Source of the DNA: Candidatus Peribacteria bacterium
Lineage (GTDB): Bacteria > Patescibacteriota > Gracilibacteria > Absconditabacterales > Absconditicoccaceae
Assembly: GCA_023898485.1 (NCBI GenBank)
Contig: CP060225.1
Coordinates: 513,704-545,703 of the forward strand
Direction of reading: 5' to 3'
Length of the DNA stretch: 32,000 nt
Part shown: piece by piece, positions 1 through 32,000 of the stretch
Numbering within the stretch: position 1 is the first letter of the stretch
How the letters are laid out: every line of letters starts with the position of its first letter
Program-made: the position numbers and the translations under genes
The notes under the pieces: generated by a model
The model's input: the letters and a program-made list of their open reading frames with translations, nothing else
What the model was told of the DNA's origin: nothing
Database searches by the model: none

Positions 1-860
1 CGAGCTTTGAGTGCGTAGAAATCACGAGCAATATCATTGGAATCACTGACGGCCTGGAGCAATGCGTCCACAGCCGCTGGATCAACATCTTCGGACACTA
101 TCCTACTGGCATCAGGGCGATCATACGAGCGCAAGGTGTCGGTCGCGAGTTTGTATTCCAAGATGCTATTGAGTTCTCTCGTGGCCATGTACTCGATCTT
201 AGCTACGATCTCATGGATGTGTGTTGCTGCCTGGTCTCTGGTCGCTTTGTTGGCATGTTTGGTGAGTGTCATGAGTTCTTCAAAACTTCTCTCCGACTCC
301 TTTCCGTCCACTGTCATGGTCCTGGTCTCCTGCTTGAGAGCGTCCTCTACAAGATCACTCCAGTTTCCATACGACGATTTGGCGAGGAGTGCGACGGCTT
401 TTTCGGTCTCGCGAGAGAGATCATGCTGCGCTGATGCTCGGATGCGTTCGAGGAAGTGACGGTACGGCTGGAGTATAGGCGCACTTAAAAGCTTCTGATG
501 ATGTGAAGGATCGATTTTGCCCAGATTGAGTTCGAAAAATTGGAGACGAATCATCTGTTCTCTGGAGAGATGTTCTGCCTGACCCAAGCGCGCTTTGATC
601 TCGTCTGTGCCCTCCGTCGTATCACGGAGATATCGATAGCACATCTCACGTGTACCATAAGGATAGTCCGCCATCAGTGCTTCATAGTCATCGAGTGACT
701 GTTGTACTATCGGTGGGTCAGAAAAATCAACACTCTCCTGATCTCGCTGCGCAACGAAGGCATCGATACGTTCGATGAAGGTCTGATTATCGATTGCGAT
801 CTGTGGATCATCACCGCCAGCATATAGTGATGAGAGGTCTCGAGTGGTGGTTAGTTGCAT
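1..860 (-). CDS. pepF: M3-family oligoendopeptidase F-like peptidase, N-terminal part (gene starts at 860 and runs off the left edge)
   Basis: The minus-strand frame opens at ATG 858-860 and stays open to position 1. It is missing from the ORF track because it has no in-window stop. Translation MQLTTTRDLSSLYAGGDDPQIAIDNQTF...LQPYRHFLERIRASAQHDLSRETEKAV...DIARDFYALKA resembles the N-terminal half of M3B oligoendopeptidase F. The catalytic HEXXH would lie off-window. Confidence 0.7.
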   Translation of the reverse strand, partial: MQLTTTRDLSSLYAGGDDPQIAIDNQTFIERIDAFVAQRDQESVDFSDPPIVQQSLDDYEALMADYPYGTREMCYRYLRDTTEGTDEIKARLGQAEHLSREQMIRLQFFELNLGKIDPSHHQKLLSAPILQPYRHFLERIRASAQHDLSRETEKAVALLAKSSYGNWSDLVEDALKQETRTMTVDGKESERSFEELMTLTKHANKATRDQAATHIHEIVAKIEYMATRELNSILEYKLATDTLRSYDRPDASRIVSEDVDPAAVDALLQAVSDSNDIARDFYALKA

Positions 861-937
861 ATGTTTTGGGATAAATGTCACAATAAAAACTACGCCCCCA
901 CTCTACCAAAAGTGACAAAGAGAAGCAAGAGCAGTAT

Positions 938-1013
938 AGTAGCAAGTATCAAGTAGAACAGAGGTAGCAGGTATTCTTTACCTGTTACTTGCTACCTTTT
1001 GCTACCTGCTACC
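938..1013 (+). promoter_or_regulatory. Interleaved inverted repeats built from TGCTACC/GGTAGCA heptamers upstream of the nucleoside hydrolase gene
   Basis: GTAGCAAGTA (939-948) is the reverse complement of TACTTGCTAC (986-995). GGTAGCAGGTA (963-973) is the reverse complement of TACCTGCTACC (1003-1013). The order is A-B-A'-B' and the array ends 22 nt before the ATG at 1035. Confidence 0.3.
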
Positions 1014-1034
1014 TTTACCACTTCCTCCTCCTCT

Positions 1035-2015
1035 ATGACAGAGAAAAAACTAATCCCCGTCATCCTCGACTGCGATCCAGGCAATGATGATATTTTTGCT
1101 ATCCTGTGGGCGATGATCGCTCATCAGCATGGCTACATCGATCTCCAAGGAGTGACGACGCTCGGTGGTAATGTTTCAGCTGATCTAACCTATCGCAATG
1201 CACTCAGGATGAGAGATTTCACAGGTATTGATGTCCCTGTGGGCAAAGATCTCCGTCCCGTCGTCGGTGCGGGTGATGCGAGTCATATCCATGGTGCTGA
1301 TGGTATCGGTGGCTTAAGTAACTTATTGCCTGATGTGCAAGAACCGTCTCAGACCCTCGACAGCGTCCAGATGCTCATCGACGCGATCCAACGTCAACCG
1401 GGTCAGCTCACCATCTTGGTAACAGGACCGATGACCAATCTCGCTGCAGCGGAGCGCAAAGTGCCTGGTATCCTCCAGCAAACCAAGTATATCATCGCCA
1501 TGGGCGGTAGCTTCCATGCAGGAGGCAATGTCACTCCGACCAGCGAGTTCAATATCTGGTATGATAGCGCAAGTGCGAAAGCAGTCTTCGATGCGACGGA
1601 CCATATCGTCCTCATCCCGCTGGATGTGACACAGAGCTTCGTCTTCTCACCCGAAGATACCGAGCAGTTCTTGGCAGAAATCAATCATGGATATAAGGCG
1701 GACTTTATGCGCAAGCTCACCCAAGCCGTCATCCACACCACGAGGAACTTCAGAGAGACTCATTACCAAAACGGCTTCTTCGTCCATGATGGGCATGTGG
1801 TAGGCTTCTTGCTGTATCCACATCTGTACAGAGGCACCCTCGTCGGTGTCCATGTAGAAAATCAATGAGAGTACACCAAGGGAATGACCGTCGCAGACCG
1901 AAGAAATCACGCTCGTACGGACTATCGCAAGACCCTCGTCATCACGGATGTCGACCACTATGGATTCTTGGAAGCACTGGTGCAGGATTTTAGAGAGTTT
2001 GATTTTGGAGAATAA
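1035..2015 (+). CDS. Inosine-uridine preferring nucleoside hydrolase (IUNH) family protein
   Basis: MTEKKLIPVILDCDPGNDDIFAILWAM carries the DxDxxxDD aspartate cluster typical of IUNH enzymes. The track ORF ends at TGA 1866-1868, but reading it as Gly gives VHVENQGEYTKGMTVADRR, which matches the conserved xETxGxxTxGxTVxD block. The true stop is TAA 2013-2015, giving 327 codons in frame. Confidence 0.85.
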
Positions 2016-3561: not shown

Positions 3562-4305
3562 ATGTATATCTCTCTTCTCAATCGCTACTATGGACAGGAT
3601 AATATCGTATCATACACACCACCTCATGATTTGACCTGTAATGCAGGTGATGTGATGATCGTAGGATGAGAATACGGTATCGTCCTGGGAGAGTCTGTGG
3701 CGCGATGATGTGACTACGTACTGGATGATGCATCTTCCCATCAAGCAGAATCACTTCTTCTATCGCCTACCAGTATGATGATGGTGCATTGGATGGTGCA
3801 TGAGTGGTATAGTAGTTATCGCAAAGTTCTGCCACTCTGGCTAGGTAATGACATCACCAATCTTCTCAAAAGAAAACCTCAGACTCCCCCATCACCATCT
3901 CCTGCCTGATCACATCTCGTCAGATCCTGAACCTCACGGATACGAGATGACAAAAAACATCACGGACAACAGTGTATGATTTTCCCTGATTTACGGACTA
4001 TTTATAGCATGATCGACGAAAGAATAAGAACAGATAATGCTGTCGTTATTCTCTCCAGTGCTATGACTGAGAAACAGCGCAATGACGCTCGATGGGCTAT
4101 CAAATATGGCAAAAAGAGGATCATCCTCAGTACGCCTGCTGCGTTTTTTCATGATCGATATAGACTTACCGACATACAGGTGGTTGATTCACATCTTCGG
4201 TATTACAAAAATAGACAAAACCCAAGATACAATGTGAGTGCAGTCGTCGCACAGCGGAAAGCGCACCTTTCGACAACATCACATTCTATGCAAACTGAGC
4301 AATAA
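3562..4305 (+). CDS. Short, degenerate PriA-like protein (primosomal N'-like N-terminus; helicase motifs eroded)
   Basis: The frame from ATG 3562 joins the track ORF 3976-4305 through several TGA codons. The N-terminus MYISLLNRYYGQDNIVSYTPPHDLTCNAGDVMIVGGEYGIVLGES resembles the PriA 3'-DNA-binding domain. GQQCMIFPDLRTIYSM...VILSSAMTEKQRNDARWAIKYGKKRIILSTPAAFF...IQVVDSHLRYYKNRQNPRYNVSAVV is collinear with the PriA motif I-II region. No GxGKT Walker A is present, DEEH is replaced by DSHL, and the ORF stops (TAA 4303-4305) before any helicase C-domain or Zn-finger. Confidence 0.5.
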
Positions 4306-5206
4306 TCTGATAGACGATCAATAAGAATAAGAAGATAGTCAGGCCGACGATAAAGACGGTCTGCAGGATTTTTCCTGCACGTTTTGCTCATTCGCCATCA
4401 CCACCATCGGTAATATAGTTATAACCAGCTACAAAAATAGATCACAAAATACCTATACCTACCGCATATCCCAAAATTCTACTAACCTTGATAATGAGTG
4501 TGCGTGCCTGATCAAAAAATGTCGTATCCATTGCCAACAGATAGATGAAGTCGATCACTTTCATCAACACAAGAGCTATAACAACATTGATAATACCATT
4601 ACGGGCAGATTTGAGTTGCTCTTCGTGGCCCATAGCATGCATCATCCTATAACCAGCTATAACGAGTGCTATGATAGCTGCAAAAAATGACATTGCTTTG
4701 AAAAACGCCAAAAGTTGGAACCATAGATTATTTTGGAAATTGTTGACTAGCGCATTGCTACCTCATGGTGTCGTGAGATTGAGTGCAAAACCTAGTATCC
4801 AGACTGCACCAAAATACAAGAATGCACCATAGAGAAGTCGGATGAAATGTTTTTGTGCTGTTGCGAGTTTGGATTCATCATCTGCTTGTGTAAGAAATTG
4901 AATACCTATCCATATCAAGAAAATGAAAAAGATAGCTACGCCAATAATTCTTACATAACTCCACAAAAATCACCCATTCCCGCTAACGCTTGGATAAAAC
5001 AGTCTCTTAAGATTTTCTGCCAAAGAAGCATCAGGGTTGATCTGTAAGTCATAGACTTTTTCTGTGGTATTCTCACTATTGTCCTTAGGATTGGTTAAGT
5101 GATTAGCAAAATCTGTTTCAAAACTAGGAACTGTCGGCGGAGCTGCCATGCTTATGCCTACCAGGCTACATGCTGCCACTACTATGATTAGAATACTTTT
5201 CTTCAT
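4286..5206 (-). CDS. Secreted membrane protein made of three tandem VirB2/TrbC-like pilin hairpins (306 aa)
   Basis: Track ORFs 4970-5206, 4763-4966 and 4442-4711 share one frame and are joined only by TGA. A further TGA at 4442-4444 extends the frame to TAG 4286-4288. The signal peptide is MKKSILIIVVAACSLVGISMAAPP. Three TM - short charged loop - TM units follow, with loops TQADDESKLATAQKH, HAMGHEEQLKSARNG and TDGGDGEGAKRAGK. Confidence 0.6.
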
Positions 5207-5221
5207 AATGGATGTAGATAA

Positions 5222-5683
5222 TTACACATTAAAAATAAGTGCTACCAAACTTGTGACAAGTTTGATAATCAGATACACAGCCATCAGTATTACTACGCCT
5301 GTGACTATATTGAGTAGTGGTTTACGAATATCTTCAATCGTTTTGCCAAGCACTAGTTGTAGGCCCTGCCAGATGATGAGGATGACAGCTACCGATAATC
5401 CAATATAAATCATTCGATCAAGATATGGAGCAACTTTTTTTCTGATAGAATCAAAGGTATTCGCGAGACGATATGTAAAGGGATATGATCATTCTGTATT
5501 GGTCACGCTATCTAATGCAGTATCTTGTACTGGATCATATGTATTGGCATCTCTTACTACATTATCAAGAATCTCCATCGGAGATGATCCGAATTGTCAC
5601 CATCAGCCACTATTTTGTGCATAGAGGACAGATCACAATCAGATCATCATAAACATAAAACCACTGATTATATATCTTCTCAT
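5222..5683 (-). CDS. VirB2/TrbC-like (T4SS-type) pilin candidate, 153 aa
   Basis: ATG 5681-5683 to TAA 5222-5224 reads through four TGA codons. An N-terminal signal/TM segment (MRRYIISGFMFMMIGLGSVLYAQ) and a soluble spacer precede the C-terminal hairpin MIYIGLSVAVILIIWQGLQLVLGKTIEDIRKPLLNIVTGVVILMAVYLIIKLV. This architecture matches small pilins annotated in CPR and Gram-positive T4SS loci. Confidence 0.55.
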
Positions 5684-5748
5684 GTATCTATGGGTGGAGA
5701 GTAAAATACCTTACCTAGAGTATATGACAATAAAAAAGATAACACAAA

Positions 5749-6378
5749 TTATCCTATTACCTTCCATCACTTGAGTTGACACTGCTTCTGAAAATCATCA
5801 TAATCATCCCACGGAATTATTAGCACAATACCTATCTCATCTCCCATTACCTCCTGCGTAAAATGATATCACCTCTGTTCTCTCCGCTGCATCACTTCAT
5901 GAAAATCCTCAAATCAGACACGAATACGGATCTCTCTCATGATCGGAGTCTGGATTATTTTTGCCGTCTCGAGCACTGCTTGTGCTGTTTGTGTATATGC
6001 TTTGACTAATCATCACACACCTAGTAGTGTTCATCAGAAATAGCGTACTACTGCACATCAGACATTGCGAAGATCAGCTCACTGTAATACCTGCAAAATA
6101 GATCTTCCAGCTGTACCGGATGGCTCACCATCATCCTGACTATAATCACGTTCTGAATGTGTCACCACCTGTCCCATGATATCTCGCTGTATCTGCATAC
6201 CAATGCGATATGCATAACAGACATGGCTTGCCTTAGGATGCAATCACCAGATCTTCTCGATGCTATCTTTTACTTCATTTTCAGATGCTACATGAAAAAT
6301 ATACCCCTCAAACTTTGATCACTTAATCGGAGGAATAGCCATACGATGCGAGTCAATGATGGTATTATACGAAAACAT
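5749..6378 (-). CDS. yigZ: YigZ / IMPACT-family protein (UPF0029)
   Basis: Not in the ORF track because ten TGA codons break it up. With TGA=Gly it reads ...KASHVCYAYRIG...DDGEPSGTAGRSILQVLQGADLRNVGCAVVRYFGGTLLGVGGLVKAY..., matching the family motifs DDGEPxGTAG and RYFGGxxLGxGGLxRAY. Both GG pairs are TGA-TGA (6031-6036 and 6010-6015). The ORF is 210 codons and ends at TAA 5749-5751. Confidence 0.85.
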
Positions 6379-6416
6379 ACCATTATTCTAGAGAAAATAG
6401 GTATGATGTCGAGTGA

Positions 6417-7319
6417 TTATGCGTAGCCGACATTTGCGCTAATGGTCGCGTAATAGTCTTGTGTCTCTTGTGGACGAGTATTGAGTGGTTCTTTAGCATA
6501 TCATGGGCCATTATTGTATGCTATCAATGCTTGCTGCATATTGAACGTATCGCCACTTTTATATCCATATTCTGCCAAATACATAGCAGCAGCTTCTGCT
6601 GCATACACAGGATTTTTTGCAAGTGACTCTGAGTCAGGTGCCGCGACCTTTTTGTATCGATCTTTTGCTGTATCAGGCATAAATTGAAACAATCACTGTG
6701 CGCCCGCACTGCTTCCCAATGGTCTGTCTCCTTCTTTTAAGACTCATTTGCTCTCCTTTTTACACACCTCTACCAAAGTATTGATTGGCAATTTGTGTTT
6801 CCGTTCTAATCGATGTAAGTAAGAGATGTATGCGGTGTTCTTGAGGTATCCATCCTTGGGTAATTGTGACCAAGAGGTATGCTTCAAATCAATAATACTC
6901 TCTTTATCATATTGGGGCTCTTTCAGCTGTATTTTATCGGTTTCATATTTTAGTCATTTGATATCCTCTGCAGTTTTAGTTATATCATCTGATTCGACTG
7001 ATTGAGGATCTTGTAAAAATGATTTGATTATTACTGATTTTAGGACTCTCATGACAGGATTGGTTGGTTCCTCTCTCAGCCACTCAGCAATCGTACCGAC
7101 TGCGACATCTCATACCAGTGGAGATTGTATCATTTTATCATATATCTCTCTTCATCTATCATTCAGTCAGCTAGTGTCACCTTTTTCTAATGCAGATGCA
7201 AGCTGTTCATACTTACTATCTGTTTTTGTTTCCTTGGCTTCTATATTTTGTTTCTGATCATCATCCTGATCGGGCCCCTTGTTGAGGTTATTGTCTGCGA
7301 TATCACTTTTATCTACCAT
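6417..7319 (-). CDS. SLT-domain lytic transglycosylase with a long acidic N-terminal region (VirB1-like role possible)
   Basis: I translated codon by codon from ATG 7317-7319 to TAA 6417-6419 (301 codons) and found no TAA/TAG. The catalytic region is KKESKGVLKEGDRPLGSSAGAQGLFQFMPDTAKDRY...AYNNGPGY, matching ES...AGAxGLMQxMPxTA...YNxG. The Gly of GLFQFMP is TGA 6693-6695. Confidence 0.8.
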
Positions 7320-8095: not shown

Positions 8096-8113
8096 TTTTA
8101 TGCAAGATTATTT
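8096..8113. repeat. 18-bp direct repeat TTTTATGCAAGATTATTT, copy 1 (overlaps the 3' end of the toxin gene)
   Basis: Exact match to 8629-8646. Together the two copies bracket the RelE/RHH cassette. Confidence 0.8.
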
Positions 8114-8737: not shown

Positions 8738-9700
8738 ATGAAACACTTAAGCTATGAGGAATGTGTACATATCGAAGTATTGGTAGGTGAAGGTTATTCT
8801 CATAGACGTATTGGAACAGTCCTATGAAGAAGTAATGGAAGTATTTCTCGTGAAATAAGAGAATATAGTATGAATGGAATCTATATTGCATCACTTGCAT
8901 ACCTCAAAAGAACCATAAAGAGACAGTTATGCAATAGTCTTATGCGCTGTAGAATAGACGAGTGAAGTGATCTAGCACAGTATACAATAGACAAGATGAA
9001 GCTCTATTGGTCACCAGAACAAATAGCAGGAAGGTGGAAGAAAGAGACATGAGAAACTATTTCAAAGGACACTATCTATAGGTACATTAAGATACATCAT
9101 CCAAAGTTAGTACCTCAATATTTCAGAAGAAAATGAAGAAAATATAAGTATAACAAAGAACCCTGTGATTATATCTATAACCGTATTAGTATTCATGAGA
9201 GGCCAGACATAGTGAAGAATAAAGAAAGAATAGGCGATCGAGAATGAGATACAGTTATAGGAAAATGAAGAACATGAGGTTTTGTGACTCTCAATGAAAG
9301 GAAGAGTGGTTATGTGCTAGCTGGGGTCATTAAGAAAAAGAAAGCGCAAGAGGTGTTATATGTGATGGAAAAGTTATTCAATGAGGTATCTGAAGGTATA
9401 AGAAAAACCCTCACCTTAGACAACGGCAGAGAGTTTTCTGAGCATTATATGTTGAAGCCATTGTGCGGGTTAGACACATACTTTGCAGACCCATGATCAC
9501 CCTGACAAAGATGAGCAAATGAGAATACAAATGGCTTACTGAGACAATTCTATCCAAAACGTATGAGTCTTGCAAATATTCAGCAAGAACACCTTGAATA
9601 CTATGTAAGTCTCCTTAATAATAGACCAAGAAAAAGGTTAGGTTACACTACTCCGATAGAGGTTCTTGCTGAATATAATAAGTGTGTGGATTTGAATTAG
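8738..9700 (+). CDS. IS30-family DDE transposase, 320 aa
   Basis: ATG 8738 to TAG 9698-9700 (321 codons) is in frame with track ORF 9284-9496. It has an N-terminal HTH (SYEECVHIEVLVGEGYSHRRIG), then GDREGDTVIG, TLTLDNGREFSEH and [28 protein letters not shown]...LNNRPRKRLGYTTPIEV. These match the IS30 catalytic core (WEGD...DNGxEF...PWQRGxNENxNGLLRQ...RPRKxLG). Ten TGA codons are read through. Confidence 0.85.
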
Positions 9701-10227
9701 AATCTAGTTTCTTGCAGATAGTTTTTTATGAGAGTAAATTCCTGGGCACGAGGAAATCATGGAAATTCCATATTATTTCAAGCAAAAATATCTTCTACTT
9801 GTTCTAGAGTAAATGTCTGCATATCTTCTACTTCACCATCTTTGAATTCAAATGGCCCATCATATCATTGCAATACATAGAGATAGTTGTGTCATCTATA
9901 CTCATTCTGACCATGACAAGTATACACTTGTATAAAATCTATTTTATCTCCCGCATCCATAATCCCAGCCTCTTCCTCTGCTTCTCTTATCATAGCTACT
10001 GTAGGCTCTTCTCATAAAGCAATATGACCACTTACTGTAGCATCTCGACAATCAGGCTTAATCCATTTATCCTTAGGTCTCTTTTGTAATCGTAGTTTAT
10101 TTTCAGTATTGAATACATAGAGAATTACTGCCCTCACATACTGTCATTGCTTGTATGCCTCAGACTTCATCATGTCTCCTATCCTCATATTATTTTCATC
10201 ATAGATATTGATACGTTCGTCAGCCAT
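9697..10227 (-). CDS. Nudix hydrolase
   Basis: The Nudix box GHIALGEEPTVAMIREAEEEAGI fits Gx5Ex7REUxEExGU. The Gly of LGEEP is TGA 10012-10014. The ORF is 177 codons in frame from ATG 10225-10227 to TAA 9697-9699. Its last roughly 10 codons lie inside the presumed right end of the IS30 element and overlap the transposase stop by 4 nt. Confidence 0.8.
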
Positions 10228-10276: not shown

Positions 10277-13200
10277 TTATCCTATAATCTCTGCTTTGCC
10301 AGCATCGATGAGGTCTTTGACTTTTTTGTATTTGACTTCGTACTCTACTTTGCCATCAGGATAGCGGACGGTGATTTTGTCATTGGGGCGGAGTTTAGAT
10401 CACTTGGTTTGTAGTTCGTGGTCAGTGGTCAGTGGTTCGCTGCCCGTCTCAATCACTTCTACTCCGTCTTCGTCAGATTGGATTTGCTTCGTTGTTTTGG
10501 GTGTAGTTGTTGGTGCTGAAGGAGACGAAGCTGCTGCCGCTTTGATAGAGTCGATAATACCTGACTGTCTGGCTTGGATTCTTGCCTGACGAGCATTGAT
10601 TTGGTCATTCACATTATCCCAGTCGATCTGTGCTGTGCGAGTCACGATATCGCGGTCGATATTGGCCTGGAGCTGAAGGAAGAGTTCGTATGCCTCCCTT
10701 TTGTACTGGACGAGTGGATCGATCTGTGCATAGGACATGAGACCGACCTTGTCGCGAACATGCTGCATTACATCGATATGATCTATCCAATAGTGGTCGA
10801 TAATGTTCAAATTATTGGTCGTGATCATCTTGTTGACAATGACAGCAGGAATATCGTGCTGGACATCGAGTCTCTGCTCCAAATGATCGGTCAAAACATG
10901 CATGAGTTCGTTGGATGAACCAGGGACGCTGTCGAGGGTCAGGTTAAATTCTTTCTGAAGGGTAACAAGAAGATCTTCATCAGACACATCCAACTGTTCT
11001 TGCTCGGTCACAAAGCCAGCAATGACGTCTGGTATGAGTGTACGGATATCCTGGATGACAGGAGAGTCTGCCAAATTGATAGTTGCCTTATCATCGGTTT
11101 GTTTTTCTGCTTCAGAAAGTGCAACAAGGAGTTTATTTCTTCTATCATACATTCTTTGGCGCTGTTTGTCGACGACGGTATCATAGTCGAAGAGGTGCTT
11201 ACGAGAAGAGAAATGTCGTGCCTCCATCTGCTTCTGTGCGCGGATGATAGAGCCACCAAATTGTTTATTCGTCAGTTCCATCTGCTCGAGCTGATCTCTA
11301 GACATGAGTGTGGCTGCGAGGGATTGGATTTTTTCTCCGCCGACTTTGCGCATGATCTCATCATCGAGTGCGACGAAAAACATCGATACACCCGCATCTC
11401 CTTGACGACCGGCACGACCACGGAGCTGGTTATCGATACGACGAGAGTCATGTTTTTCGGTAGCGAGGATCATCAGACCATAATGAATATTTTGCTCGAC
11501 AAGATCACCTGTCGCTCATGCTGGTTTGATAGTGAGTTCAAGATAGGTGTCTGATGGTTTGGATTTCTTCGTATTGAAGGTGAAGGTCCACTCTGCTCCC
11601 TCATGGGTCAGTGTGTGATTGCGCTCTGCATCACGTACCTCATCGAGTGATAACCCGAACTGTGCAACCAACGCGTCAAAGGTCAGTTCCGCTTCTTCGC
11701 GAGAGAAGATATCGAGTGACACAGGGTGAGCATTTTGGAGCTGAGTGCTGATTCGCTTAGCATAATTAGTAGCGATCTGTATATTAAGATCGTCGGGGAG
11801 TTTGATATCCGTACCACGACCGGCCATATTGGTCGCGACGACGACCGATCCCAACTTACCTGCACCTGCGACGATATTCGCTTCTTGTTCGTGAAATTTG
11901 GCATTGAGGACAGAGTGTTTGATCGCTACTTGAGTCAGTAGTGATGAGACGAACTCCGAGGTGTGAATCGATGAGGTACCAACCAAAATCGGCTGACCCA
12001 TACGATGTGCAAACTGGATAGTGTCCATGACGGCTTTCCATTTGGCGTTTTGGGAGAAGTATACTTTGTCTTCGTAGTCGACACGGATGACTGGCTTGTT
12101 GGTCCTGATCGCAAGGACACCCAACTCATAGATAGACTCAAATTCTTCACCTTCGGTCGTTGCGGTACCCGTCATACCAGCAAGTTTGTCGTATTGTTTG
12201 AAAAAGTTTTGGTAGGTAATGGTTGCGATGGTTTTGGATTCACGCTGGATAGCTACTCACTCTTTGGCTTCGATCGCTTGGTGGAGTCACTGGTTGAATC
12301 TACGACCTGGCATTGCACGTCCGGTATTGGTATCGATGATGACTACTTCGCCATTAGATACGATATATTCTTTGTCTGCGCGATAGACTGCTTGGGCTTT
12401 GATAGCGTTTTCGATGTGGTGTATCTCATCGAAGCCGAGATCTCTGTAGAGATTTTCTACTCACAAAATACTCTCAAGTTTGGCGATACCCTCGGAGGTA
12501 AGGGTAGCATTTTTGGTCTTTTCGTCGATGTAGTAGTCTCCATGTGGTTCGGATTCTGATTCATCTTTTTTCTCATCATTGAGTAGATCATGGAGAAATC
12601 ATTTTGAAACTTTTTTGCGTCCAGGAGCTGCAGTGAGGTTGCGGATGATCTTGGCGTAGTAAGTGTATTTGTCCGTAGACTCCTCTGCTGGCTGCGAGAT
12701 AATCAGCGGTGTACGTGCTTCGTCGATCAGGATAGAGTCTATTTCGTCCACAATGGCAAAATATAATGGTCTCCAGAGCAGCACTCTCTGTTCCATCGTC
12801 TTGGCGATATTGTCGCGGAGATAGTCAAATCCAAGCTCTGAGTTTTCGACGTAGGTGATGTCACATTCATACTCTTGGCGGCGAGCTTTGCCTTGAGGAG
12901 TGCTCTTGGTCACGGAGCCAATCGTCATCCCGAGAAATTGATAGAGATGTCCGATCCATGCAGCATCACGAGATGCGAGATAATCGTTCACCGTGACGAG
13001 ATGGACACCCTTACCGGTGAGAGCATTCAGATAGAGTGGTAATGCTGCTACTAGTGTTTTACCTTCACCGGTTTTCATCTCAGCGATTGCATCACGATGG
13101 AGTACGATACCTCCCAGTAACTGGACATCATACGGGATCATGTTCCAGGTCTGGAGTGTGCCTTTGACATCGTATTCGTTGCCGACCATGAGTGCACATG

Positions 13201-13423
13201 CACGTTTGACGAGTGCAAATGCTTCGGGCAAGATGTCGTCAAGATGTTCGCCTGACGCGACTCTGGATTTGAGTTCCGCGGTTTTGGTCTGGACTGCTTC
13301 TTGATCATAGTCAGCGTAGTCATGCTCGTAGATCTCATTGATCTGGCGGATAATGGGGTCGATTTTTTTGAGTTCTCTTTCGTTGTAATTTCCTGATATT
13401 TTATCAGCTAATCGGTTGATCAT
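10277..13423 (-). CDS. secA: Preprotein translocase ATPase SecA (1,048 aa)
   Basis: Track ORFs 12599-13423, 11516-12175 and 10400-11473 are in one frame. The 12176-12598 gap translates as ...[17 protein letters not shown]...[60 protein letters not shown] without TAA/TAG. GLHQ and KEGV use TGA 12287-12289 and 12257-12259. The true stop is TAA 10277-10279. The C-terminal tail lacks the Zn-binding CxCxSGxKxKxCH motif. Confidence 0.95.
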
Positions 13424-16774: not shown

Positions 16775-18676
16775 ATGAACTATCTCACCATCCGCGATCT
16801 ACATAAATCATTTGCTCATAAACCACTCTTCGAATGACTGGAGATGACCATCGCAGCAGGACAAAAAGTAGCTCTCGTAGGTGCCAACGGATCGGGAAAA
16901 ACCACTCTCATCCGCACGATCATGGGAGAGTCCGACTATAGTCAAGGATCAATCGAACGATCAGACCGCATTCACGTCGGACGACTTCGTCAAGAAGCGA
17001 CGTTTAATCCTGACCAACTCGTGATTGATATCCTCTTCGCAGACGATACTCCCAGAGCCCAAGCGATCAAACAGTATGAAAAAATCATCTCTCATCCCGA
17101 CTTCGATCCACAAGCATTTGCAGATATCCAACATCAGATCGACACGCTCGATGCGTGGACCTACGAGTCTAGAGTCAGATCCATCATTTCTCAACTCCAG
17201 CTGACACCGTTCTTAGAGCAAACGTTTGGCTCACTCTCGGGTGGTGAAGCCAAGAGAATCGCACTAGCCAAGGTACTGATAGAAGATCCTCAGATGCTCA
17301 TCCTGGACGAACCGACCAACCACCTGGATGTGACGATGATAGAATGGCTGGAAGACTATATCGCTCGCTATGATCTGACGATCCTGATGGTGACGCATGA
17401 TAGATACTTCCTCGACCGTGTGTGTACAGATATCTACGAGCTCTATGATGGACAGATCACGACCTATCCTGGGAGTTATCAGCACTATCTCTACGCCAAA
17501 TCGCAGCGTGACACGGCAGCAGACGACCTCCTCCATGAGACCAAAATGCTCTATCGTAAGGAATTGCAATGGATGCGCACCTCTCCTCGTGCTCGCCAGA
17601 CCAAAAGTGTCGATAGACAGAAAAAATTCTATGATCTCGAAAAAGACTACAAAACACAAAGAAAAACCTCCAAACTCAGACGCCAATGACTAGAACTCTC
17701 CACAACCACGTCCAGACTCGGGGGCAAAGTCATCAAAACAGAACGTATCAGCAAATCATACGGCGACAAGTGTCTGATTCGTGATTTTTCGTATCAGTTC
17801 CAGCAGGGTGAACGCATCGGTATCATCGGTCCCAATGGCGTGGGCAAATCGACGTTTATCCGTCTGTTGCTGGGTGCTGTCGAGCCAGACTCGGGCCATA
17901 TCATTACCGGCAAGACGGTCGTCTTCGGTCACTATCTCCAAGAGCAGCAAGAGTTCAACCCCGACAAGAAAGTCATCGATATCGTCAAAGATGTCGCTCC
18001 GTATATACGCCAAGCTGATGGATCCAAAGTCTCTGCGACCAAACTGCTCGAACAGTTTATGTTTACACCCAAGCAGCAACACAGCTTCGCCAAACATCTC
18101 TCAGGAGGCGAAAAACGTCGCCTGACCCTCCTGCTCGTCCTGCTACAGAATCCCAACTTTCTCATCCTCGACGAGCCGACCAATGACCTCGATATCGACA
18201 GTGTGCAAGTGCTCGAACAGTTCCTCCTTGCATACACGGGCTGTCTGATCGTCATCTCCCATGACAGATTCTTCATGGACAAAATCGTCGATCACCTCTT
18301 CGTATTCGAGGGAGAAGGAAAAATCGCAGACTACTGGGGAAGCTATAGCACCTACAAAATGGATAAGGAAAAAATCGATACAGTAGATAAAATTGAAGAA
18401 ATGGAAGAGGAATCCAATTCATCCATTTGATCAAATTCGTCCACTTCATCCTCCAAACCCAATAAATTAGGTTACATGGACCAAAGAGAATTCGATGCCA
18501 TCGTCCCTGCACTCGAACAGCTCGAAGCAGAAAAAGATGCCATCAATCTCCAGTTCCAAGACCCCTCTATCGATCACGAAACACTCAAAAAACTCAGCCG
18601 TCGCATGGCTGAGCTCGTCACAGAGATAGAAGAGAAAGAGATGAGGTGGATGGAGTTGGTGGAGAAGGTGAGTTAA
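16775..18676 (+). CDS. ABC-F family ATPase (two ABC domains plus C-terminal coiled coil, Uup-like), 633 aa
   Basis: ATG 16775 is in frame with track ORFs 16844-17689, 17840-18430 and 18476-18676. There are two Walker A sites (GANGSGKTT, GPNGVGKST), two signatures (LSGGEAKR, LSGGEKRR) and Walker B motifs (LILDEPTNHLD, LILDEPTNDLD). Read-through TGAs give LFEGLEMTI and an inter-domain linker. The stop is TAA 18674-18676. Confidence 0.9.
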
Positions 18677-24246: not shown

Positions 24247-24633
24247 TTAATAGAGCTCTACCTTATACCAATTAGATCACATATCTTTAATAATAAACTT
24301 GTATTCTTCGCTATTAATGTCGTTAATACTATACATATATCATGCTCATTGTAATTTATTGTACCATCATGATTTGAGAAATACAATATCCCCATTATTC
24401 ATTCTTATGATATTGTGTATATTATTTTTTTTCATAAAAGAAATACAATCAGCACATATATCACTCTTTTTATCAATTCATGTAATTGATGGATTTCAAT
24501 TCATATATACAACCATTGCTTCATAATCTCATATACTGTTTTTGAATCCATCAATAAGTTTTATATACTTAAAGAAAACAATAGATATAATACATAAGAC
24601 TGCAGCTATAATGATGATTTTTTTTATTCTCAT
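24247..24633 (-). CDS. Small N-terminally membrane-anchored protein, 128 aa; candidate immunity protein for the orphan toxin
   Basis: ATG 24631-24633 to TAA 24247-24249 contains seven TGA codons. Translation is MRIKKIIIIAAVLCIISIVFFKYIKLIDGFKNSIGDYEAMVVYMNGNPSITGIDKKSDICADCISF.... It lies 33 nt downstream of the type-44-like toxin ORF, on the same strand. Confidence 0.5.
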
Positions 24634-24666
24634 TATCACATAAACTTACAATCTAAAAATACGCAA

Positions 24667-25582
24667 TTACTGTAAATGATCGCGTAGCTTCTCTTCCGTT
24701 ACAATAAGTCCATATTTTTGATACATGGCATATCACAATTCTACTGTATTTCGATCACTAACTTCATCATTAAATTTATCAGAATATCTGTTACTACACT
24801 CATCCATAGTTAACACCGCACATCTTAATGTCATTTTTGCTGTGAACACATTAGCACTTCAATTAATTAACTCATTCATTGGCATACCTCCAGCTGCCCC
24901 GACATACCCGTAAAGCAGATTACCAAACCAATCATACGAATACTCATTATCTGCTATTAATACAGAAAATGCTTGTAGTGTTGCTGGAGAATATTCATAT
25001 CTCTTATAGTCTCGATCTCATCGTGGGCGAACTTTATTAAAGAAGTATAGATATTTATCAATAGATAGTTTATCTAATTTTATTTGAAGAGTAGAAATTT
25101 TGAATCTTTATTAATTCATTCTCAAAAAAAGATCAATCTCATCGATTTAATTCATTTTGTAAATTTACAATACTTCTTTTTATTGCAGATTCTTGAAGGG
25201 CATAATTCTGCATTAGAGCTCAATTATTTAACAGCTTATTGAGTGCATCTATTGTCATATCTGGAAGTACTTCTTTACTACTCAACCCCCATGGATCCAC
25301 ATAATTCACACTATTGTTCCTCACATAGCTATACGGATTCGGCCCATCGATATACAGCAGTGGATCACTGGAGATGAATCTTCCGAGTCTCGGAGAGTAA
25401 TATCTCGCTCTATAATAGTACAGATCAAGTTCTGCTTCGTATTCTCTAGCGATGTAGAGTCTGTAGTTTTCTAGTCATGGTTTGGATTCTTGCATGGATG
25501 TGTTTCCATTCTGCTGATTACCACTTGGATTACTAGTATTTGTGTTACTAGCGCATTGTTGAAATTTTGATATATAGTACAT
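24667..25582 (-). pseudogene. Orphan rhs C-terminal module: core tail, DPWGL, linker, then a type-44-like toxin domain in the +1 frame
   Basis: Frame 1 runs from ATG 25580-25582 to TAA 25070-25072. It reads MYYISKFQQCASNTNTSNPSGNQQNGNTSMQESKPGLENYRLYIAREYEAELDLYYYRARYYSPRLGRFISSDPLLYIDGPNPYSYVRNNSVNYVDPWGLSSKEV.... The +1 frame is open from 25107 to TAA 24667-24669. It reads ...VRPRGDRDYKRYEY...YDWFGNLLYGYVGAAGGMPMNELINGSANV...NDEVSDRNTVELGYAMYQKYG and has no start of its own. Confidence 0.65.
25286..25533. repeat. Rhs-core repeat A, orphan copy (pairs with 26921-27168)
   Basis: About 250 bp encoding NPSGNQQNGNTSMQESKPGLENYRLY.AREYEAELDLYYYRARYYSPRLGRFISSDPLLYIDGPNPYSYVRNNSVNY. The nucleotide sequences differ at only scattered positions by eye. 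Confidence 0.85.
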
Positions 25583-25589
25583 ACACTAT

Positions 25590-26261
25590 CTATGCACTAA
25601 AACAATCTTTCATATCAATTATACCTATATAAGATATATTATTAACGATATAGAATATAAAAACCGTATCCTGTATGTAGTATATTGTAGAGACATGATC
25701 TCTAATGAATCATGCATATTCCATATCCTCAGGAGAAGCTAAGGTGCTATCGTCATTAATATTGTTATGTTTATAAAAATCTATCTTTCATTGGTTGATA
25801 TCGATTATATCCTGTACAAACTGATAGTTATTGTCATAGTCATAAGATGCAATTACATCTGGTTTATAATCATCACTGTCTCCCAACCAACATATATCTT
25901 GCCATTGCAAATCATTATTAGTTTCTAATTGGTCCACAATATCTAGATTAAAATCAAATCATGATCAGTAGTATACTGCACCAAAAAACCCGTTATAATA
26001 ATATGTCTCATATGCATCCTCAAATCATGGGAAAAATGCGATATATCAATCAGCTCCAGGATTGTAAAAGATCCCTAAGCTATCCTTCACAAAATGATCC
26101 ATCATAGCAAAATCATTACTATTAAGTGCAGATAGTAGTCAAATAATATCATCATGCTGACTATCTATGTCTATATCTCTTCAACTATTGTCTAGAATAC
26201 TGCATCAAGATAATAACATACAACACAACACCCCAAAGTATCTTAGAAATATTACTTTCAT
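25590..26261 (-). CDS. Lipoprotein, 223 aa; candidate immunity protein for the amidase-tipped Rhs toxin
   Basis: ATG 26259-26261 lies 24 nt downstream of the rhs stop, and the ORF ends at TAG 25590-25592. MKVIFLRYFGVLCCMLLSGCSILDNSG has a lipobox LSGC whose Gly is TGA 26205-26207. The mature part is acidic and aromatic-rich (FFPGFEDAYETYYYNGFFGAVYYGSGFDFNLD) and matches no family I recognise. The ORF is invisible in the standard code. Confidence 0.6.
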
Positions 26262-26284
26262 ATCTAGATCGTTAATTATAAAAA

Positions 26285-26920
26285 CTACTTTTGATTCTCT
26301 CTTACGTATTGTATTACATCATCTGCAAACGATGTTGCTTCTCAAATATTTTTACAACTTACCCATGGGTGTGCGTATATATCATCAGCACTTAAACCAT
26401 ATGTATTTGCAACCGATAATGTTAATTCTTTTAAAGACTGTAGTTGATCACTAGTTAGTGGCTCACCAGTCATTCATACATTCTCTATTCAGATGGTGTT
26501 TTGGTTATTATTAGCATACTGATTTACTTCATCTGTTTGATGCCAGTCATCTACTCATCAGTTATAAACATATTCCCTCAAGGTATTTACACAGTATTCA
26601 TTTGCTCCATTGTGTCGAGCTATCTGTGTATCAGGATCAAGTGTCCCATATATTTGACCATCAGTATCTATAATATAGTGAGCACTTGCAGTACCTTTGG
26701 GTCGCGTATAATCTAATGTAGATTCTAAGGTTGTTGCATTGGTTTGGTGTAGAATAATAGCTTGTATTCATTCTCATTGACGATCTCGATGTCAATAATT
26801 ATATTTTTCAGCATATGACCAATCAATATCAATTCATCACAAATTATCAATTCGTTCATTAATACTATTTGTAAATGTGTTACTCTTAATGTTATCATAT
26901 AGTATAGCACTACTCTCTAA
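26285..26920 (-). other. Rhs C-terminal toxin tip: Amidase_2 (N-acetylmuramoyl-L-alanine amidase / PGRP)-like domain
   Basis: After DAWGL the protein reads ...GIQAIILHQTNATTLESTLDYTRPKGTASAHYIIDTDGQIYGTLDPDTQIARHNGANEY...NTIGIENVGMTGEPLTSDQLQSLKELTLSVANTYGLSADDIYAHPWVSCKNIGE. This follows the Amidase_2 order: IxIHxT (His ligand), AHYxIDxDGxIxQ, AxHxG, NxIGIE, TxxQxxxLxxL, then IxxH....C (His/Cys ligands). Confidence 0.6.
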
Positions 26921-29900
26921 CCCCCAAGCATCCATATAATTCACACTATTATTCCTCACGTAGCTATATGGATTCGGTCCATCTATATATAGTAGTGGAT
27001 CACTGGAGATGAATCTTCCCAGTCTCGGAGAGTAGTATCTCGCCCTATAATAGTAAAGATCAAGTTCTGCTTCATATTCTCTAGCGGTGTAGAGTCTGTA
27101 GTTTTCTAGTCATGGTTTGGATTCTTGCATGGATGTGTTTCCATTCTGCTGATTACCACTTGGATTACCATTCGTATTTCATGAGTTTTTACTTCATCAG
27201 AATATTATATTACCTCGGGTATCGTATCTGTAGGATTCGACTATCTTACCTTCTTGGTTAGAGAGAGCTATGATAGATCACTGATGATTTTGATAATAGT
27301 AGTACTGATTCACCTGATCATTTCTGGTGAGTTCATGGAAGACGATATCGTCTAGTCCTCTGGCTCAGTAGACATACTCTTTGGTGAAGGTTTGTCCATC
27401 ATTGCTCTCATAGGTTCGATGTTCTTGAGCAATGTTCTGTCCATCATAGACATAGGTGATGAGTCTACTTTCATTGCTTCATTGGTAGACTCTCTTACTC
27501 GTTCTACGTCATAGTGGATCATAGCTATATTCGATCTTGTAGGGGTCTTGATTTCATGGATGGCCTGCCCCGTCTTCAGCGGGGTTATCTTTCAGATTCG
27601 CTTTGATGAGTCTATTCTGATAGTCATAGGTAAATGTTCGCTTGTCGTTTTCGATAAGGTTGCCATTCTGATCGTATGCAAAACTAGTGGCTATTGCTCC
27701 TGTTGCACCTTCTGTCCCTATTGCTACTTCTTCATATTGGTTTCTGTTATTGATGTTGTAAGTGTTCTGATACTCATCTGTCACTGCACCGACACCATTA
27801 TAGTCTGGACTGATGGTGAGCCAGTCATCTTGGACTCCACTACTACTTCATCCACTTTGTCAATTTGATCCATTTCATCCTGTATCATCTCCCGTTCCTC
27901 GTCCATAGTGATTTCCATTCCCTCCATTACCTTGGTTTTGTTGGTTTCCATTGCCATTATTGTTTCCATTTGATCCACTTGGTCCATTTCAGCTATTTCA
28001 TCCACTTTGTCCATTATTCCCATTATCTGTATTGGGTACGACTGATTGCGTCGTATTTCACTGGGTATTGCTATTAGCTTTCTGATGGAGTCGATCGAGG
28101 ATAGTGATACCTGCGATGTCATTGTATTCGGTGACTCTGTTGCCTAGTCCGTCGTAGGTATAGGTCTGTACTCGATGGTTGAGGTCGGTAGATCATTGTT
28201 CGCCATTGGATCAATTGATGAGATCACCAATATTGTAGGCAGTGGTCGTGATCTGATAGATATCATCATAGTAGTACTGATCGTGACCATCAGTGAGGAT
28301 GTTATTCATCAGATCATAGGTGTAGGTGTAGCCTATCTCGGTGGTAGGTCAGCCAGTGAAGCTATCGTGACTGAGGGAGGTAGGTCTTAGGAGATCGTCA
28401 TAGATTCGTGAAGTGGTAGTATCATTGGCTCTGGTGAGAGAGGTGAGGGTGGCGCTGTCATAGAGGTAGTCGATGATACTCTCTCCTTCTCGCTGGATAT
28501 CTGTCATGCGTCCGAGGATGTCCCACTGGTTCGTAATCGTCTTGCCTGATGGGTAGATGGTGTCTTGGAGATCAGCGGTATCAGCGTAGTAGCTATGGGA
28601 GATGGTCTGAGTAGGGAGTCACTGCTCGGTGAGTCGTAAGTTAGACTGTGATTCAGAGGTGAGCCTATCCAGACTATCATACGAGAAAGTAAGATCATGT
28701 CCGAGGTCATCGGTGATCGATGTGACCCTCCCGAGTTCGTCATAGGTGTAGTGCTCCTGAGTGACTCATCCGACTCATGGACCCAGATCAATATCCTTCT
28801 GTGTGATGCGATGCATGTCATCATAAGTATATGCTACGGTCGACCCATTGGGATCGGTAGATGAGATGATATTGCTGTCTGCATCGTAGGTGTAGGTAGT
28901 GATTGCACCATCGGGGAGTGCTTGCTGTATGAGTCTATCATAGTCGTCGTAAGTCCATGTGGTGATGTTGCCATTATCATCGGTGAGAGAGATGAGATTA
29001 CTGTGGCGATCATAGGTTTTGGTAGTGACGATAGCTTGTGATCCATCATGTTGCGTTACTTGTGTGACATTGCCCCAGTAGTCATATTCGTACTCGGTAG
29101 TATTACCCTCTGCGTCCGTCATCTGGGTGATCTGACCCAGTCCATTGTAGACGTAGGAGAATGTCTGTCCCATGTGATTGGTCGTCTGGATGAGACGATG
29201 ATCGTCATCATAGGTATTGGCTATTCGGAGCATCTTACCTTCTGCTGTGGTGATGGTTTGTTTGGTGATGAGGTTGTCATCATCATATTCATAGGTCAGT
29301 ATTTTGCCGACTGCGTCGGTGATGGTCTCTGGTCTGGCAAATGCATCATAGGTCATCGTAGTCACCGCTCCTCTCTGATCGGTCATGGCGATGATCTTCC
29401 CATGTTGATCATAGGTATAGGACATGGAGAGAGTTTCGCTGGTGTTATCTACATTGACTTTGTCTACCTGTGTCAGCTGTCATCGTGCATCATAGGTGTA
29501 GTTTCGTTGCTGTAATAGTATGTAGTTAGTGGTTTGTGGTGTGTAGTTGCTTACTATCATCCTTGTTATCATGTTGCGATTATCATCGTACTCGAAGAAG
29601 GTGGTGATATCCTCAGCAGTGGTGATAGTGGCGATCATATCATCGAGTGTTCGAGTCATGGTGGTCTCATGTCCTTCTGGATCAGTGATGGAGATCAGTC
29701 TTCCTTTGGTGTCATAGTCATAGCTGTACTTGATCAACTGTCCATCTACTGTTGCAGATTTACTGGTGAGTCTCTGGAGAGAGTCATAGGTATAGTTTCG
29801 CGCGAGTCATTCAGGAAGGATGATGGATGAGAGGTTGTCATTGGGATCATACTCCATGATAGTGGTAGCTATAGTGTCTGCATCTTGGTCAGTAGAGATG

Positions 29901-32000
29901 GATGTGAGATTGTCGAGGATGTCGTAATCGAACGTAGTGTCGACATGAGCACCATCCACATCCTGGATCATACTGGTGAGGTTATGATTGTCATCATAGC
30001 TGTATGATAAGGTGATGGCTTCTGGAGTAGTGAGCCCGGTGAGTCTATCCCACTCATCATGAGTGAGTGTGGTGGTGTGACCCTCTCCATCAGTGATGGT
30101 ACGAGGATTACCAAAATCATCATACGAGATAGTCTGTGTGATCTGACTACCATCAGTACCAATCTGGGTAATAGTGAGAGGGAGATCGTATTCGTTATAG
30201 GTGTAAGTTATCTGCTGACCATAAGGGAGAGTGATGGTATCTGGTTTGTCAGAGTCAGTGTAGGAGATAGTGGTGGTACGAGCAGGGAGAGAGCTGTCTG
30301 CTGGCTGGATGGTGTACGAAGTGAGATTGTTGTGATCATCGTAGGTGTAGCTATGGTGAATATGATGGCTGTCTACTTTTTCTGTCAGGAGATTATTGCT
30401 ATCATAAGTGAAGGTTTCGGTGAGAGATTCATCACCATCGGAGATAGTGGAAGAGGTGATATTGCCTTGGTCGTCGTAAGTGTAAGACTGTGCAGAATCA
30501 TCAGGATAGGTAATCTGCGATACCTGATGTCATATACCATCATATTCATAATGATACATGATGCCTGACTGATCAGTCAGAGACAATAAACGGTAATATG
30601 CATCATACACATGAGTTGCTGTCTGACCGCGTCTATCAGTGATATCTACCTGTAGATTACCATCAGCAAGATCGGTATATGTATAAGAAAGTATCTGATC
30701 ACCATAGGCCTGTTGGATAACACGGTCATGAGCATCATATGTGTTGTCCACATAGATATTGTCTTTGTTATCATCAATAGTTGCTAGCTGATGCGAAAGA
30801 AGATGGTTGACTACACGCTCACCTGTCACGCTATCATAACGTACATCACTATTATAAGTGAGATTGATGGTCTGATTTTGATTTTCATGATTGACCACAA
30901 ATGATGCAATATCTCCCAATACGCCATCACTGTCCTGATCACCGTAATAGGTAATATCTACTGAGCGACCATTGGCATGAGCAATGTGTGTGAGTCTCTT
31001 CTCAGGATATGATGGGTTGAGCTCTTCGTATGAGAAAATGATATTGCGTCCATGAGGATCAGTGATAGTGGTGAGATATCCCTCATCATCGTAGCTAAGA
31101 GCATAATCAGCATTATGTATGGTATAGCGAACCATTCTCCATGGCACTATATCTTCGCCCTGAGATGCAAATACTTGATAGGCGTTGGCACCTACAATAT
31201 GTAAGATGTATTCATCTCCTGATTGGGAAATCTCCATATCAGACGCATTAGTCCATTTGTCTCCCTCTTGGACGAATTTATACACATGGAGGTATCCATC
31301 ATAATAGGTGATAGTAGACCCATCGATAGTGAGATATTGATTCCAATTATGATCTCGATTTCGTCACATGATACCGTTGTATGATGCTTGATTATCATAG
31401 GTGACTACCAATTGAAAATCTTCACCCTCCGTCGGCTCATCCATGAGTGTATTGGACCAGACCATTGCACCTCTTGCAAGATCGACAGGATCACCACTAT
31501 TCTGTGTCACCTCTGTTTGAGCTTGTATGCCTCCATAGTATTCTACTATACTATTGGTATAATCAACCTGCGGATTATAGATATAAGAAGTCAGATTGAT
31601 ATTATTACTCATCTGTTCATGCTGTATCACAGGTTCTTCTTCGGTGGGAAGATTGATGCTACCATCAGGATTAGTAGTAGGATCCCATGCAGCAGGACGA
31701 GGACAATAATTATTATCTACAATAATTTTTAACTTATAGTTTCTCACCTTCACCACACAACCAGGATCAATATATTGTGATGCTGTCATTTCATTATGCG
31801 TACATTGTCCATCCCATCGTGCTATTCCTCATGGACATTGAGAAACATCAGATGTGGGACATACAAATCATGCATAATCACCATCTGTCGGCTGATACCA
31901 GTCTGCCAAATCTTCTGCAGTAGCATAGGGATCATCAAGCACTGACGCATAGACAGGACATATTTCTAGATAGGTAGGTCACTCTTCATAATATGCTCAT
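26285..32000 (-). CDS. Rhs/YD-repeat polymorphic toxin, 5'-partial (>1,900 aa in window), with C-terminal Amidase_2/PGRP-like domain
   Basis: Track ORFs 31364-31789, 30530-31285, 29480-29737, 28775-29425 and 27554-27784 are all in the frame of stop TAG 26285-26287. I read the gaps 31286-31363, 29738-30529, 29426-29479, 27785-28774 and 26921-27553 codon by codon and they contain TGA but no TAA/TAG. The Rhs shell entry motif GDPVDLARGAMVWSNTLMD is near 31440-31495. Dozens of YD repeats follow (YTYDxxGR/N...). The core ends ...LYYYRARYYSPRLGRFISSDPLLYIDGPNPYSYVRNNSVNYMDAWGL. The frame is still open at 32000. Confidence 0.9.
26921..27168. repeat. Rhs-core repeat A, main-gene copy (pairs with 25286-25533)
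   Basis: See the 25286-25533 feature. The copies diverge exactly at the DPWGL/DAWGL boundary on one side and at NPSGN on the other. Confidence 0.85.
27329..27658. repeat. Rhs-core repeat B, main-gene copy (pairs with 23905-24213)
   Basis: See the 23905-24213 feature. Confidence 0.75.
27836..28069 (-). repeat. Gly/Asn/Ser/Gln low-complexity insert inside the rhs coding frame
   Basis: The rhs frame reads NTQGNTTQSVVPNTDNGNNGQSGGNSGNGPSGSNGNNNGNGNQQNQGNGGNGNHYGRGTGDDTGGNGSNGQSGGSSSGVQDDW. Six TGA codons sit among GGA/GGT/GGC/GGG glycine codons. Confidence 0.8.

Follow-up and report, generated by a model that had tools for sequence, protein, structure and literature searches.

The code listed as NCBI translation table 25 is that of Candidate Division SR1 and Gracilibacteria (Campbell et al. 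2013 and Rinke et al. 2013, as cited in PMC8629427). For the Absconditabacteria a wider change was predicted computationally with Codetta by Shulgina and Eddy (2021), who combined UGA to glycine (Gly) with CGA and CGG to tryptophan (Trp) (PMC8629427), and the same set of changes is repeated in PMC13092985 and in bioRxiv 10.64898/2026.04.02.715157. The Absconditabacteria have a tRNA-Gly(UCA), lack a tRNA-Arg with an ACG anticodon and use tRNA-Arg(GCG) for CGU/CGC, and their tRNA(UCG)/(CCG) for CGA/CGG are of Trp-type identity (PMC8629427). The phenomenon is already known, the UGA change since 2013 and the CGA change since 2021. Here we examined a stretch of 32,000 bases (contig CP060225.1, positions 513,704 to 545,703), called the window throughout, for the meaning of its TGA and CGA codons. 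Our reading is that UGA is translated as glycine, that UAA and UAG are the sole stops and that CGA is translated as tryptophan, in the chromosomal DNA of an uncultured Absconditabacterales bacterium, and we put its probability at roughly 0.9. In the same reading CGU, CGC, AGA and AGG are still arginine, and UGG tryptophan.

A non-overlapping set of 28 credible genes on both strands of the window (41.0% G+C) was used for the codon counts. Open frames of at least 100 codons were compared under table 11 and with TGA, TAA or TAG freed singly. Their coverage rose from 59% under table 11 to 97% with TGA as a sense codon, and the longest frame grew from 372 to 1905 codons; it stayed at 372 codons when TAA or TAG was freed instead. 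Coding density with TGA as sense was ~92%. The genes have 150 in-frame TGA among 9609 sense codons, with at least one in 23 of the 28, and zero in-frame TAA or TAG. The 29 genes that end within the window stop at TAA (19) or TAG (10), and no gene requires a TGA stop. Both codon changes, TGA and CGA, run through the entire window.

Table 11 breaks up 23 of the 28 genes, leaving SecA in 7 fragments, the PKD protein in 5, ABC-F in 4 and Rhs in 40. An earlier interpretation made from the letters and open reading frames (ORFs) of this DNA, the sequence-only reading, had counted 4 pieces for ABC-F and at least 6 for rhs, which agrees with these figures; its 3 pieces for secA and 4 for the PKD protein were too few. 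It had also warned that gene calling under the standard code would miss or truncate most genes here, and this holds, with 23 of the 28 carrying an in-frame TGA. The genes on which the comparisons below draw are these:

3..860, minus strand: N-terminal part of oligoendopeptidase F, PepF (g01); no TGA, CGA at 840-842, 744-746, 633-635 and 438-440
1035..2015, plus strand: nucleoside hydrolase (g02); one TGA (1866-1868) and one CGA (1899-1901)
3562-4305, plus strand: PriA-like ORF, truncated and degenerate; matches PriA structures weakly (E = 0.006), with DSHL in place of the helicase motif DEEH
5749..6378, minus strand: YigZ/IMPACT family protein (g09); 11 in-frame TGA, including two TGA-TGA pairs
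6417-7319, minus strand: SLT lytic transglycosylase
8738..9700, plus strand: IS30-family transposase (g14); 10 TGA and one CGA, with D-W-E-G-D written GAT CGA GAA TGA GAT
9697..10227, minus strand: Nudix hydrolase (g15); 6 TGA and 2 CGA (10090-10092, 10045-10047)
10277..13423, minus strand: secA (g16), 1048 codons; 6 TGA and 3 CGA (13412-13414, 11753-11755, 11216-11218)
16775..18676, plus strand: ABC-F ATPase (g18); 3 TGA and 2 CGA (16958-16960, 16982-16984)
minus strand: SecF (g24)
26285..31999, minus strand, running off the window: Rhs-repeat toxin gene (g30) with a C-terminal Amidase_2 domain; 39 TGA and 21 CGA

The sequence-only reading had placed TGA at conserved glycines of unrelated families, and every one of the seven positions that it cited is a TGA on the strand given, in frame in the gene named. 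In YigZ both glycine pairs of the motif RYFxxTLLGVxxL are in-frame TGA-TGA (6031-6036 and 6010-6015), and this motif aligns to RYFGGvkLGaGGL in Thermus TTHA1053 (2cve) and to RYYGGiLLGtGGL in E. coli YigZ (1vi7). SecA has TGA in frame at 12287-12289 and 12257-12259, the SLT motif GAQxLFQFMP at 6693-6695, the nucleoside hydrolase block ENQxEYTKGMTV at 1866-1868 and the Nudix box G-HIALx-E at 10012-10014. The WEGD-type motif in the catalytic region of the IS30 transposase also contains TGA, as had been proposed; it reads D-CGA-E-TGA-D at 9239-9247 (CGA at 9239-9241, TGA at 9245-9247), so that the tryptophan of the motif is itself written CGA. In the glycine-rich tract of the Rhs gene (27836-28069) TGA is mixed with GGN, again as proposed.

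We scored the alternatives with a Codetta-style log-odds tally over 2644 aligned columns. Its columns came from four comparisons: the Rhs gene with 120 Rhs proteins that use the standard code, the IS30 transposase with 24 that do, PepF with 150 representative homologues, and SecA with clade genes stripped of their TGA, CGA and CGG cells; PepF, the gene taken for the representative-homologue search, contains no TGA. Across the 33 TGA columns glycine scored +36.8 bits, the next residue, N, -34.3 and tryptophan -81.5. Pfam profiles gave a concordant result for twelve domains over ten proteins: translation of TGA as G outscored W in 11 of the 12, and the twelfth differed by 0.6 bit. The bit scores with G and W, respectively, were 117.6 and 96.4 for UPF0029 (YigZ), 117.4 and 110.8 for SecA_PP_bind, 56.7 and 47.3 for Amidase_2, and 52.2 and 49.1 for NUDIX. 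The NCBIfam IS30 profile rose from 222.2 bits under table 4 to 232.3 under table 25 and to 239.8 when TGA was read as G and CGA as W. Column by column, the nucleoside hydrolase TGA falls where 5 of 5 solved structures shown have Gly, and IS30 TGA columns 133 and 170 are 100% G in the standard-code proteins.

A codon alignment of the window secA with 74 related SecA genes was independent of any annotation. Codon-for-codon comparison was confined to SecA, PepF and in-window paralogues because synteny between the window and its relatives is nearly nil beyond SecA. At the TGA columns of the window secA the relatives carry GGN or TGA. The residues opposite TGA in SecA relatives (G 0.73, S 0.05, A 0.05) match those opposite GGN (G 0.76, S 0.05, A 0.04), unlike those opposite TGG. 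In 34 columns with at least 95% Gly apart from TGA there are 650 TGA cells; in the Trp column there are none. The Rhs-core paralogues within the window swap the two codons in both directions, one site having TGA against GGA and another GGA against TGA. The tally, the profile scores, the solved structures, the SecA codons and these paralogues are five independent lines of evidence, and they indicate that TGA is glycine and not tryptophan. Composition agrees: glycine content is 6.6% when TGA is counted and 5.0% otherwise, and tryptophan under table 4 would be 2.4%. In the comparison of translation tables that the sequence-only reading had suggested, G was preferred over W by profile score and the TGA-aligned columns were not predominantly Trp; its claim that TGA is glycine, neither stop nor tryptophan, is borne out by ORF statistics, profile scores, aligned columns and codon exchange alike.

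Besides TGA there is a second REASSIGNMENT, CGA. Its 62 copies (65 per 10,000 codons) lie in 24 of the 28 genes, against 84 TGG (87 per 10,000), and make up 42% of TGG+CGA. In the tally CGA scored W +35.6, F 0.0 and R -26.2 bits, and with non-clade homologues only W +17.6 and R -19.3. CGT, CGC, AGA and AGG scored as Arg (+27 to +100) and TGG as Trp (+53.3 bits). Among codons with at least 5 columns, TGA and CGA alone departed from table 11.

The SecA alignment gave the same result at the codon level. CGA and CGG of the SecA relatives pair mainly with Trp (0.61 and 0.54, respectively), and CGT, AGA and AGG with Arg. All three CGA codons of the window secA stand in columns where relatives carry TGG, and at two of these sites all three closest relatives (61-63% identity) have TGG. 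The closest PepF relative, at 70% identity, has CGA at three of the window CGA sites and TGG at the fourth.

Columns from standard-code proteins pointed the same way. The CGA column of the IS30 motif is 96% W. The four PepF CGA columns, which include the Trp of the W-D-L motif, are W 87%, W 65%, F/L/A/Y and F 83%. In Rhs, CGA215 aligns to W in 12 of 12 homologues, and CGA783 and CGA1198 fall in columns with Y at 60-74%. Of the Rhs CGA columns to which 10 or more homologues align, none is rich in Arg, in contrast to the R-rich CGT/CGC and AGA/AGG columns. The A-CGA-H of the Rhs-borne amidase aligns to AWHAG of AmpDh2. Residues opposite CGA in the Nudix, nucleoside hydrolase, ABC-F and PriA-like proteins are W, Y, F, L, I or V, with Arg or Lys at one ABC-F site: in alignments to Protein Data Bank (PDB) structures the two Nudix columns read I/W/L/L and L/L/F and never R, ABC-F CGA62 reads Y/L/P/V/W/L, and the nucleoside hydrolase CGA faces F, Y, F or L in solved structures. 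Changing CGA from R to W raised the scores of NUDIX by 7.2 bits (52.2 to 59.4), Amidase_2 by 4.3 (56.7 to 61.0), ABC_tran by 2.5 (183.8 to 186.3) and NCBIfam IS30 by 7.5. By these results CGA behaves as tryptophan, and table 25 is insufficient for the window. Phenylalanine and tyrosine are excluded as meanings of CGA because of the W-dominated columns, not by every column.

CGG is rare, with 8 codons (8 per 10,000), 4 of them in the degenerate PriA-like ORF, where PriA structures have G, S and Y opposite them in a match of E = 0.006; none of the 8 falls in an informative aligned column. In the SecA genes of the closest relatives (L050 and L029) CGG lies in Trp columns. Bracketed by these relatives, CGG in the window is probably also tryptophan, and it may be concentrated in decaying sequence.

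Several observations weigh against our assignments. Two TGA codons of the IS30 gene, at 9494-9496 and 9503-9505, align to residues that are Tyr (92%) and Trp (96%) in standard-code IS30 proteins; both lie in the motif FADP-Y-SP-W-QRG. For CGA, many columns hold aromatic or hydrophobic residues (F, Y, L) and not W alone, and the ABC-F CGA70 column reads R/K/Y/Y/Y/S, with Arg or Lys in two of the six solved structures. With CGA as W the scores fell for PseudoU_synth_2 (3.2 bits), SecA_SW (2.5) and P-loop_SecA (1.2), and the net Pfam gain over all domains was ~6.6 bits. The residue of E. coli SecA at the third CGA column is probably Arg, consistent with the lower SecA_SW score. There is no tRNA gene within the window, and an ARAGORN search of 161 loci of relatives (2.39 Mb in total) returned no tRNA with a UCA or UCG anticodon. 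The evidence for the codon meanings is all comparative.

The IS30 exception fits the glycine reading of TGA, because the transposase's own subfamily has GGN at both sites. In public translations of that subfamily made with table 4, the two positions alternate between 'W' and G and are never R (for example YFADVGNAGQRGLNENT in P0129); there G has to come from GGN, and we take 'W', which table 4 gives for TGA and TGG alike, to be TGA, a reading under which the subfamily has glycine at these positions. In a more distant IS30 subfamily the same Trp position alternates between W and R, the signature of TGG and CGA. The glycine codons at these Tyr and Trp sites may be a trace of the code shaping substitutions, or may mark a transposase of altered activity. 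Under this code a single TGG-to-TGA transition changes Trp into Gly.

The alternative that survives best, though we consider it improbable, is that the window uses plain NCBI table 25, with UGA as glycine and CGA standard, so that CGA in Trp columns would mark real Arg substitutions. It is the official code of the group, PseudoU_synth_2 and SecA_SW score slightly better with CGA as R, and two of six homologues have R or K in the one ABC-F column. This account is opposed by the CGA scores (R -26.2 against W +35.6, with the other four Arg codons at R +27 to +100), by the position of CGA in columns that are 87-100% Trp in IS30, PepF and Rhs, and by its interchange with TGG among the closest relatives; Arg dominates no CGA column to which at least 10 homologues align. 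The sequence-only reading had labelled the code table 25, and that label stands for TGA as glycine and fails for CGA, which stays Arg in table 25 and behaves as Trp here.

Somewhat less probable still is ambiguous decoding, in which UGA or UGG would be translated sometimes as Gly and sometimes as Trp, for instance through wobble of tRNA-Gly(UCA) onto UGG, and the growth of CGA would be an escape from it. A potential UGA-Gly/UGG-Trp ambiguity has been noted (PMC8629427), CGA has already reached 42% of TGG+CGA in the window, and the window's IS30 subfamily has Gly codons at an otherwise conserved Trp. Set against these are TGG columns that are cleanly Trp (+53.3 bits), TGA columns that are cleanly Gly, and SecA Trp columns free of TGA across 75 genes, in a kind of comparison that is blind to low-level misreading either way.

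We find it hardly credible that UGA is tryptophan, as in codes of the table 4 type, with which public gene callers translated these contigs. In a public collection the Nudix protein P0121 (9697-10227) and the IS30 protein P0125 (8738-9700) appear in table 4 translation, where each TGA has become W and CGA has become R, gene calls on Logan contig L001 likewise read through TGA, and one IS30 TGA does align to a conserved Trp of standard-code IS30. Table 4 is refuted by the column data: TGA scores W -81.5 against G +36.8 bits, Pfam and NCBIfam scores fall with W, TGA fills invariant Gly-Gly pairs and never the clade's Trp columns in SecA, the implied Trp content of 2.4% is implausible, and the single TGA-at-Trp exception is GGN in its own IS30 subfamily.

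The standard code with TGA as true stops, whether through pseudogenes, assembly errors, selenocysteine or programmed read-through, can be dismissed, having the bare presence of in-frame TGA in its favour and nothing more, against 150 in-frame TGA and zero TAA or TAG over 28 genes, sequence conserved in frame past each TGA (SecA matches its relatives over residues 1-1048), Gly-specific TGA positions and the involvement of the essential genes secA, secF and grpE; selenocysteine, pseudogenes and assembly errors were rejected on the Gly-specific TGA and the zero in-frame TAA/TAG.

The codon meanings, stop usage and affiliation are shown by our own comparisons; for the machinery that would decode UGA as glycine and CGA as tryptophan we draw on published work on the clade. 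By that work, UGA would be read by a tRNA-Gly with anticodon UCA, and release factor 2 would be lost. CGA, and with it CGG, would be read by tRNA(UCG)/tRNA(CCG) with tryptophan identity elements, and CGU/CGC by a tRNA-Arg(GCG) unable to reach CGA/CGG. This limit of tRNA-Arg(GCG) would split the CGN box and so make reassignment possible. The relatives' loci contain 21 tRNA-Arg(GCG) and no tRNA(ACG) in 2.39 Mb, consistent with the published picture; the tRNA-Arg(GCG) gene often adjoins one for tRNA-Val(GAC), a few kb from secA. One tRNA-Trp(CCA) was found, in L026. One doubtful tRNA(CCG) candidate, in L151 (22968-23046), has a poor fold and was set aside.

Searched with SecA, the GTDB species genomes gave 80 loci, with identities of 47-63% (61-63% for the best), and a metagenome scan with SecA gave nothing closer than 63% identity. 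The informatively named SecA relatives are candidate division SR1, Absconditabacteria/-ales, Absconditicoccaceae and Vampirococcus lugosii; many other records are labelled generically or as Peribacteria. The SecA identities place the window in the uncultured Absconditabacterales (SR1) branch of Patescibacteria, in line with the SR1/Gracilibacteria affiliation that the sequence-only reading had suggested. The window is cellular chromosome and not phage or plasmid; its genes include secA, secF, grpE, ABC-F, an RluA-type pseudouridine synthase, PepF, nucleoside hydrolase and YigZ. An exact-protein look-up of window proteins led to a 5.9-kb Logan contig (SRR12358676), and a word-indexed search with the Nudix protein matched 4 proteins.

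The closest relative of any window gene is the PepF at 70% identity (L162, Logan SRR24908208, 2794 nt, 44.8% GC), which has CGA five times, TGG five times and 7 TGA. It points to a sub-branch of higher GC that makes heavy use of CGA, and the organism, with its unusually high CGA use, is a new, rather divergent member of the clade. Taken jointly, the SecA identity of at most 63% to any GTDB species representative, the GC of 41-45% in the window and its closest PepF relative and the codon counts allow a bolder reading, which we hold to be unlikely and offer tentatively: a higher-GC Absconditabacterales branch in which the move of CGA to Trp has advanced beyond any described genome, CGA supplies ~40-50% of Trp codons, and CGG is almost unused and possibly unassigned or differently assigned. 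The high GC and CGA use rest on a 32-kb sample and not on a genome, and are a lead only. If the bolder reading were true, CGA and CGG would be decoupled, against the published view in which a single tRNA(UCG) makes both change together, and the pattern would fit a model in which Trp leaves UGG to escape misreading by tRNA-Gly(UCA).

Other features of the window are as follows:

4286-5206, minus strand: T4SS_pilin (44.8 bits)
5222-5683, minus strand: weak TrbC/VirB2-like protein
8108-8350, minus strand: 80-codon partner of RelB, no family match; 7 TGA, three of them consecutive (TGATGATGA, 8144-8152)
8351-8578, minus strand: RelB-type antitoxin (Pfam RelB, 27.3 bits), adjoining the 80-codon partner
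23884-24217, minus strand: second orphan in-frame Rhs-core remnant, paralogous to 27308-27662 (87-90% identical)
24247-24885, minus strand: two small ORFs
25070-25582, minus strand: orphan Rhs C-terminal core (TIGR03696, 71.5 bits), 94% identical to 26919-27168 over 250 nt, with a different tip
25590-26261, minus strand: lipoprotein-like ORF, no family, after the main Rhs gene

The minus-strand cluster at 4286-7319 resembles a type IV secretion or conjugative-pilus system and has the YigZ gene within it. No standard gene caller would find the 80-codon RelB partner. The minus-strand stretch 23884-31999 is an Rhs toxin locus with orphan cassettes, its Amidase_2 domain being a peptidoglycan amidase. 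It has the look of a toxin/immunity array, and the known members of the lineage live as epibionts or predators. An Rfam search of the window returned no RNA family.

With UGA as glycine and CGA as tryptophan, neither table 11, 4 nor 25 translates the window correctly. Table 4 puts Trp at 150 Gly positions. With table 25 there are still 62 Trp positions read as Arg, among them residues in the catalytic motifs of the IS30 transposase and of the Rhs-borne amidase. The wrong tables degrade homology searches, structure prediction and the annotation of toxins and immunity proteins.

Among known codes, table 4 (Mycoplasma/Spiroplasma and several insect endosymbionts) resembles that of the window in that a small, reduced genome has given the stop codon UGA a sense meaning, but UGA is Trp there and Gly here, and the lineage is another. 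In Anaerococcus and the RFN20 Bacilli (Onthovivens) a codon of the arginine CGN box has likewise become tryptophan (PMC8629427, PMC13092985); CGG alone changed there and CGA is Arg, whereas in the window CGA is demonstrably changed. Table 25 shares with the window UGA as glycine, UAA and UAG as stops and, by SecA, the lineage, and differs in that CGA and CGG are arginine, CGA in the window being tryptophan-like. The Codetta code of the Absconditabacteria agrees in UGA=Gly, in CGA=Trp and in CGU, CGC, AGA and AGG as Arg, and the window's relatives carry the tRNA-Arg(GCG). The genomes behind that prediction have a GC of 0.26-0.38 and CGA below 37 per 10,000 in all species (PMC8629427), against 0.41 and 65 in the window, which provides independent, gene-by-gene support for the change of CGA to Trp at higher GC and CGA use than reported.

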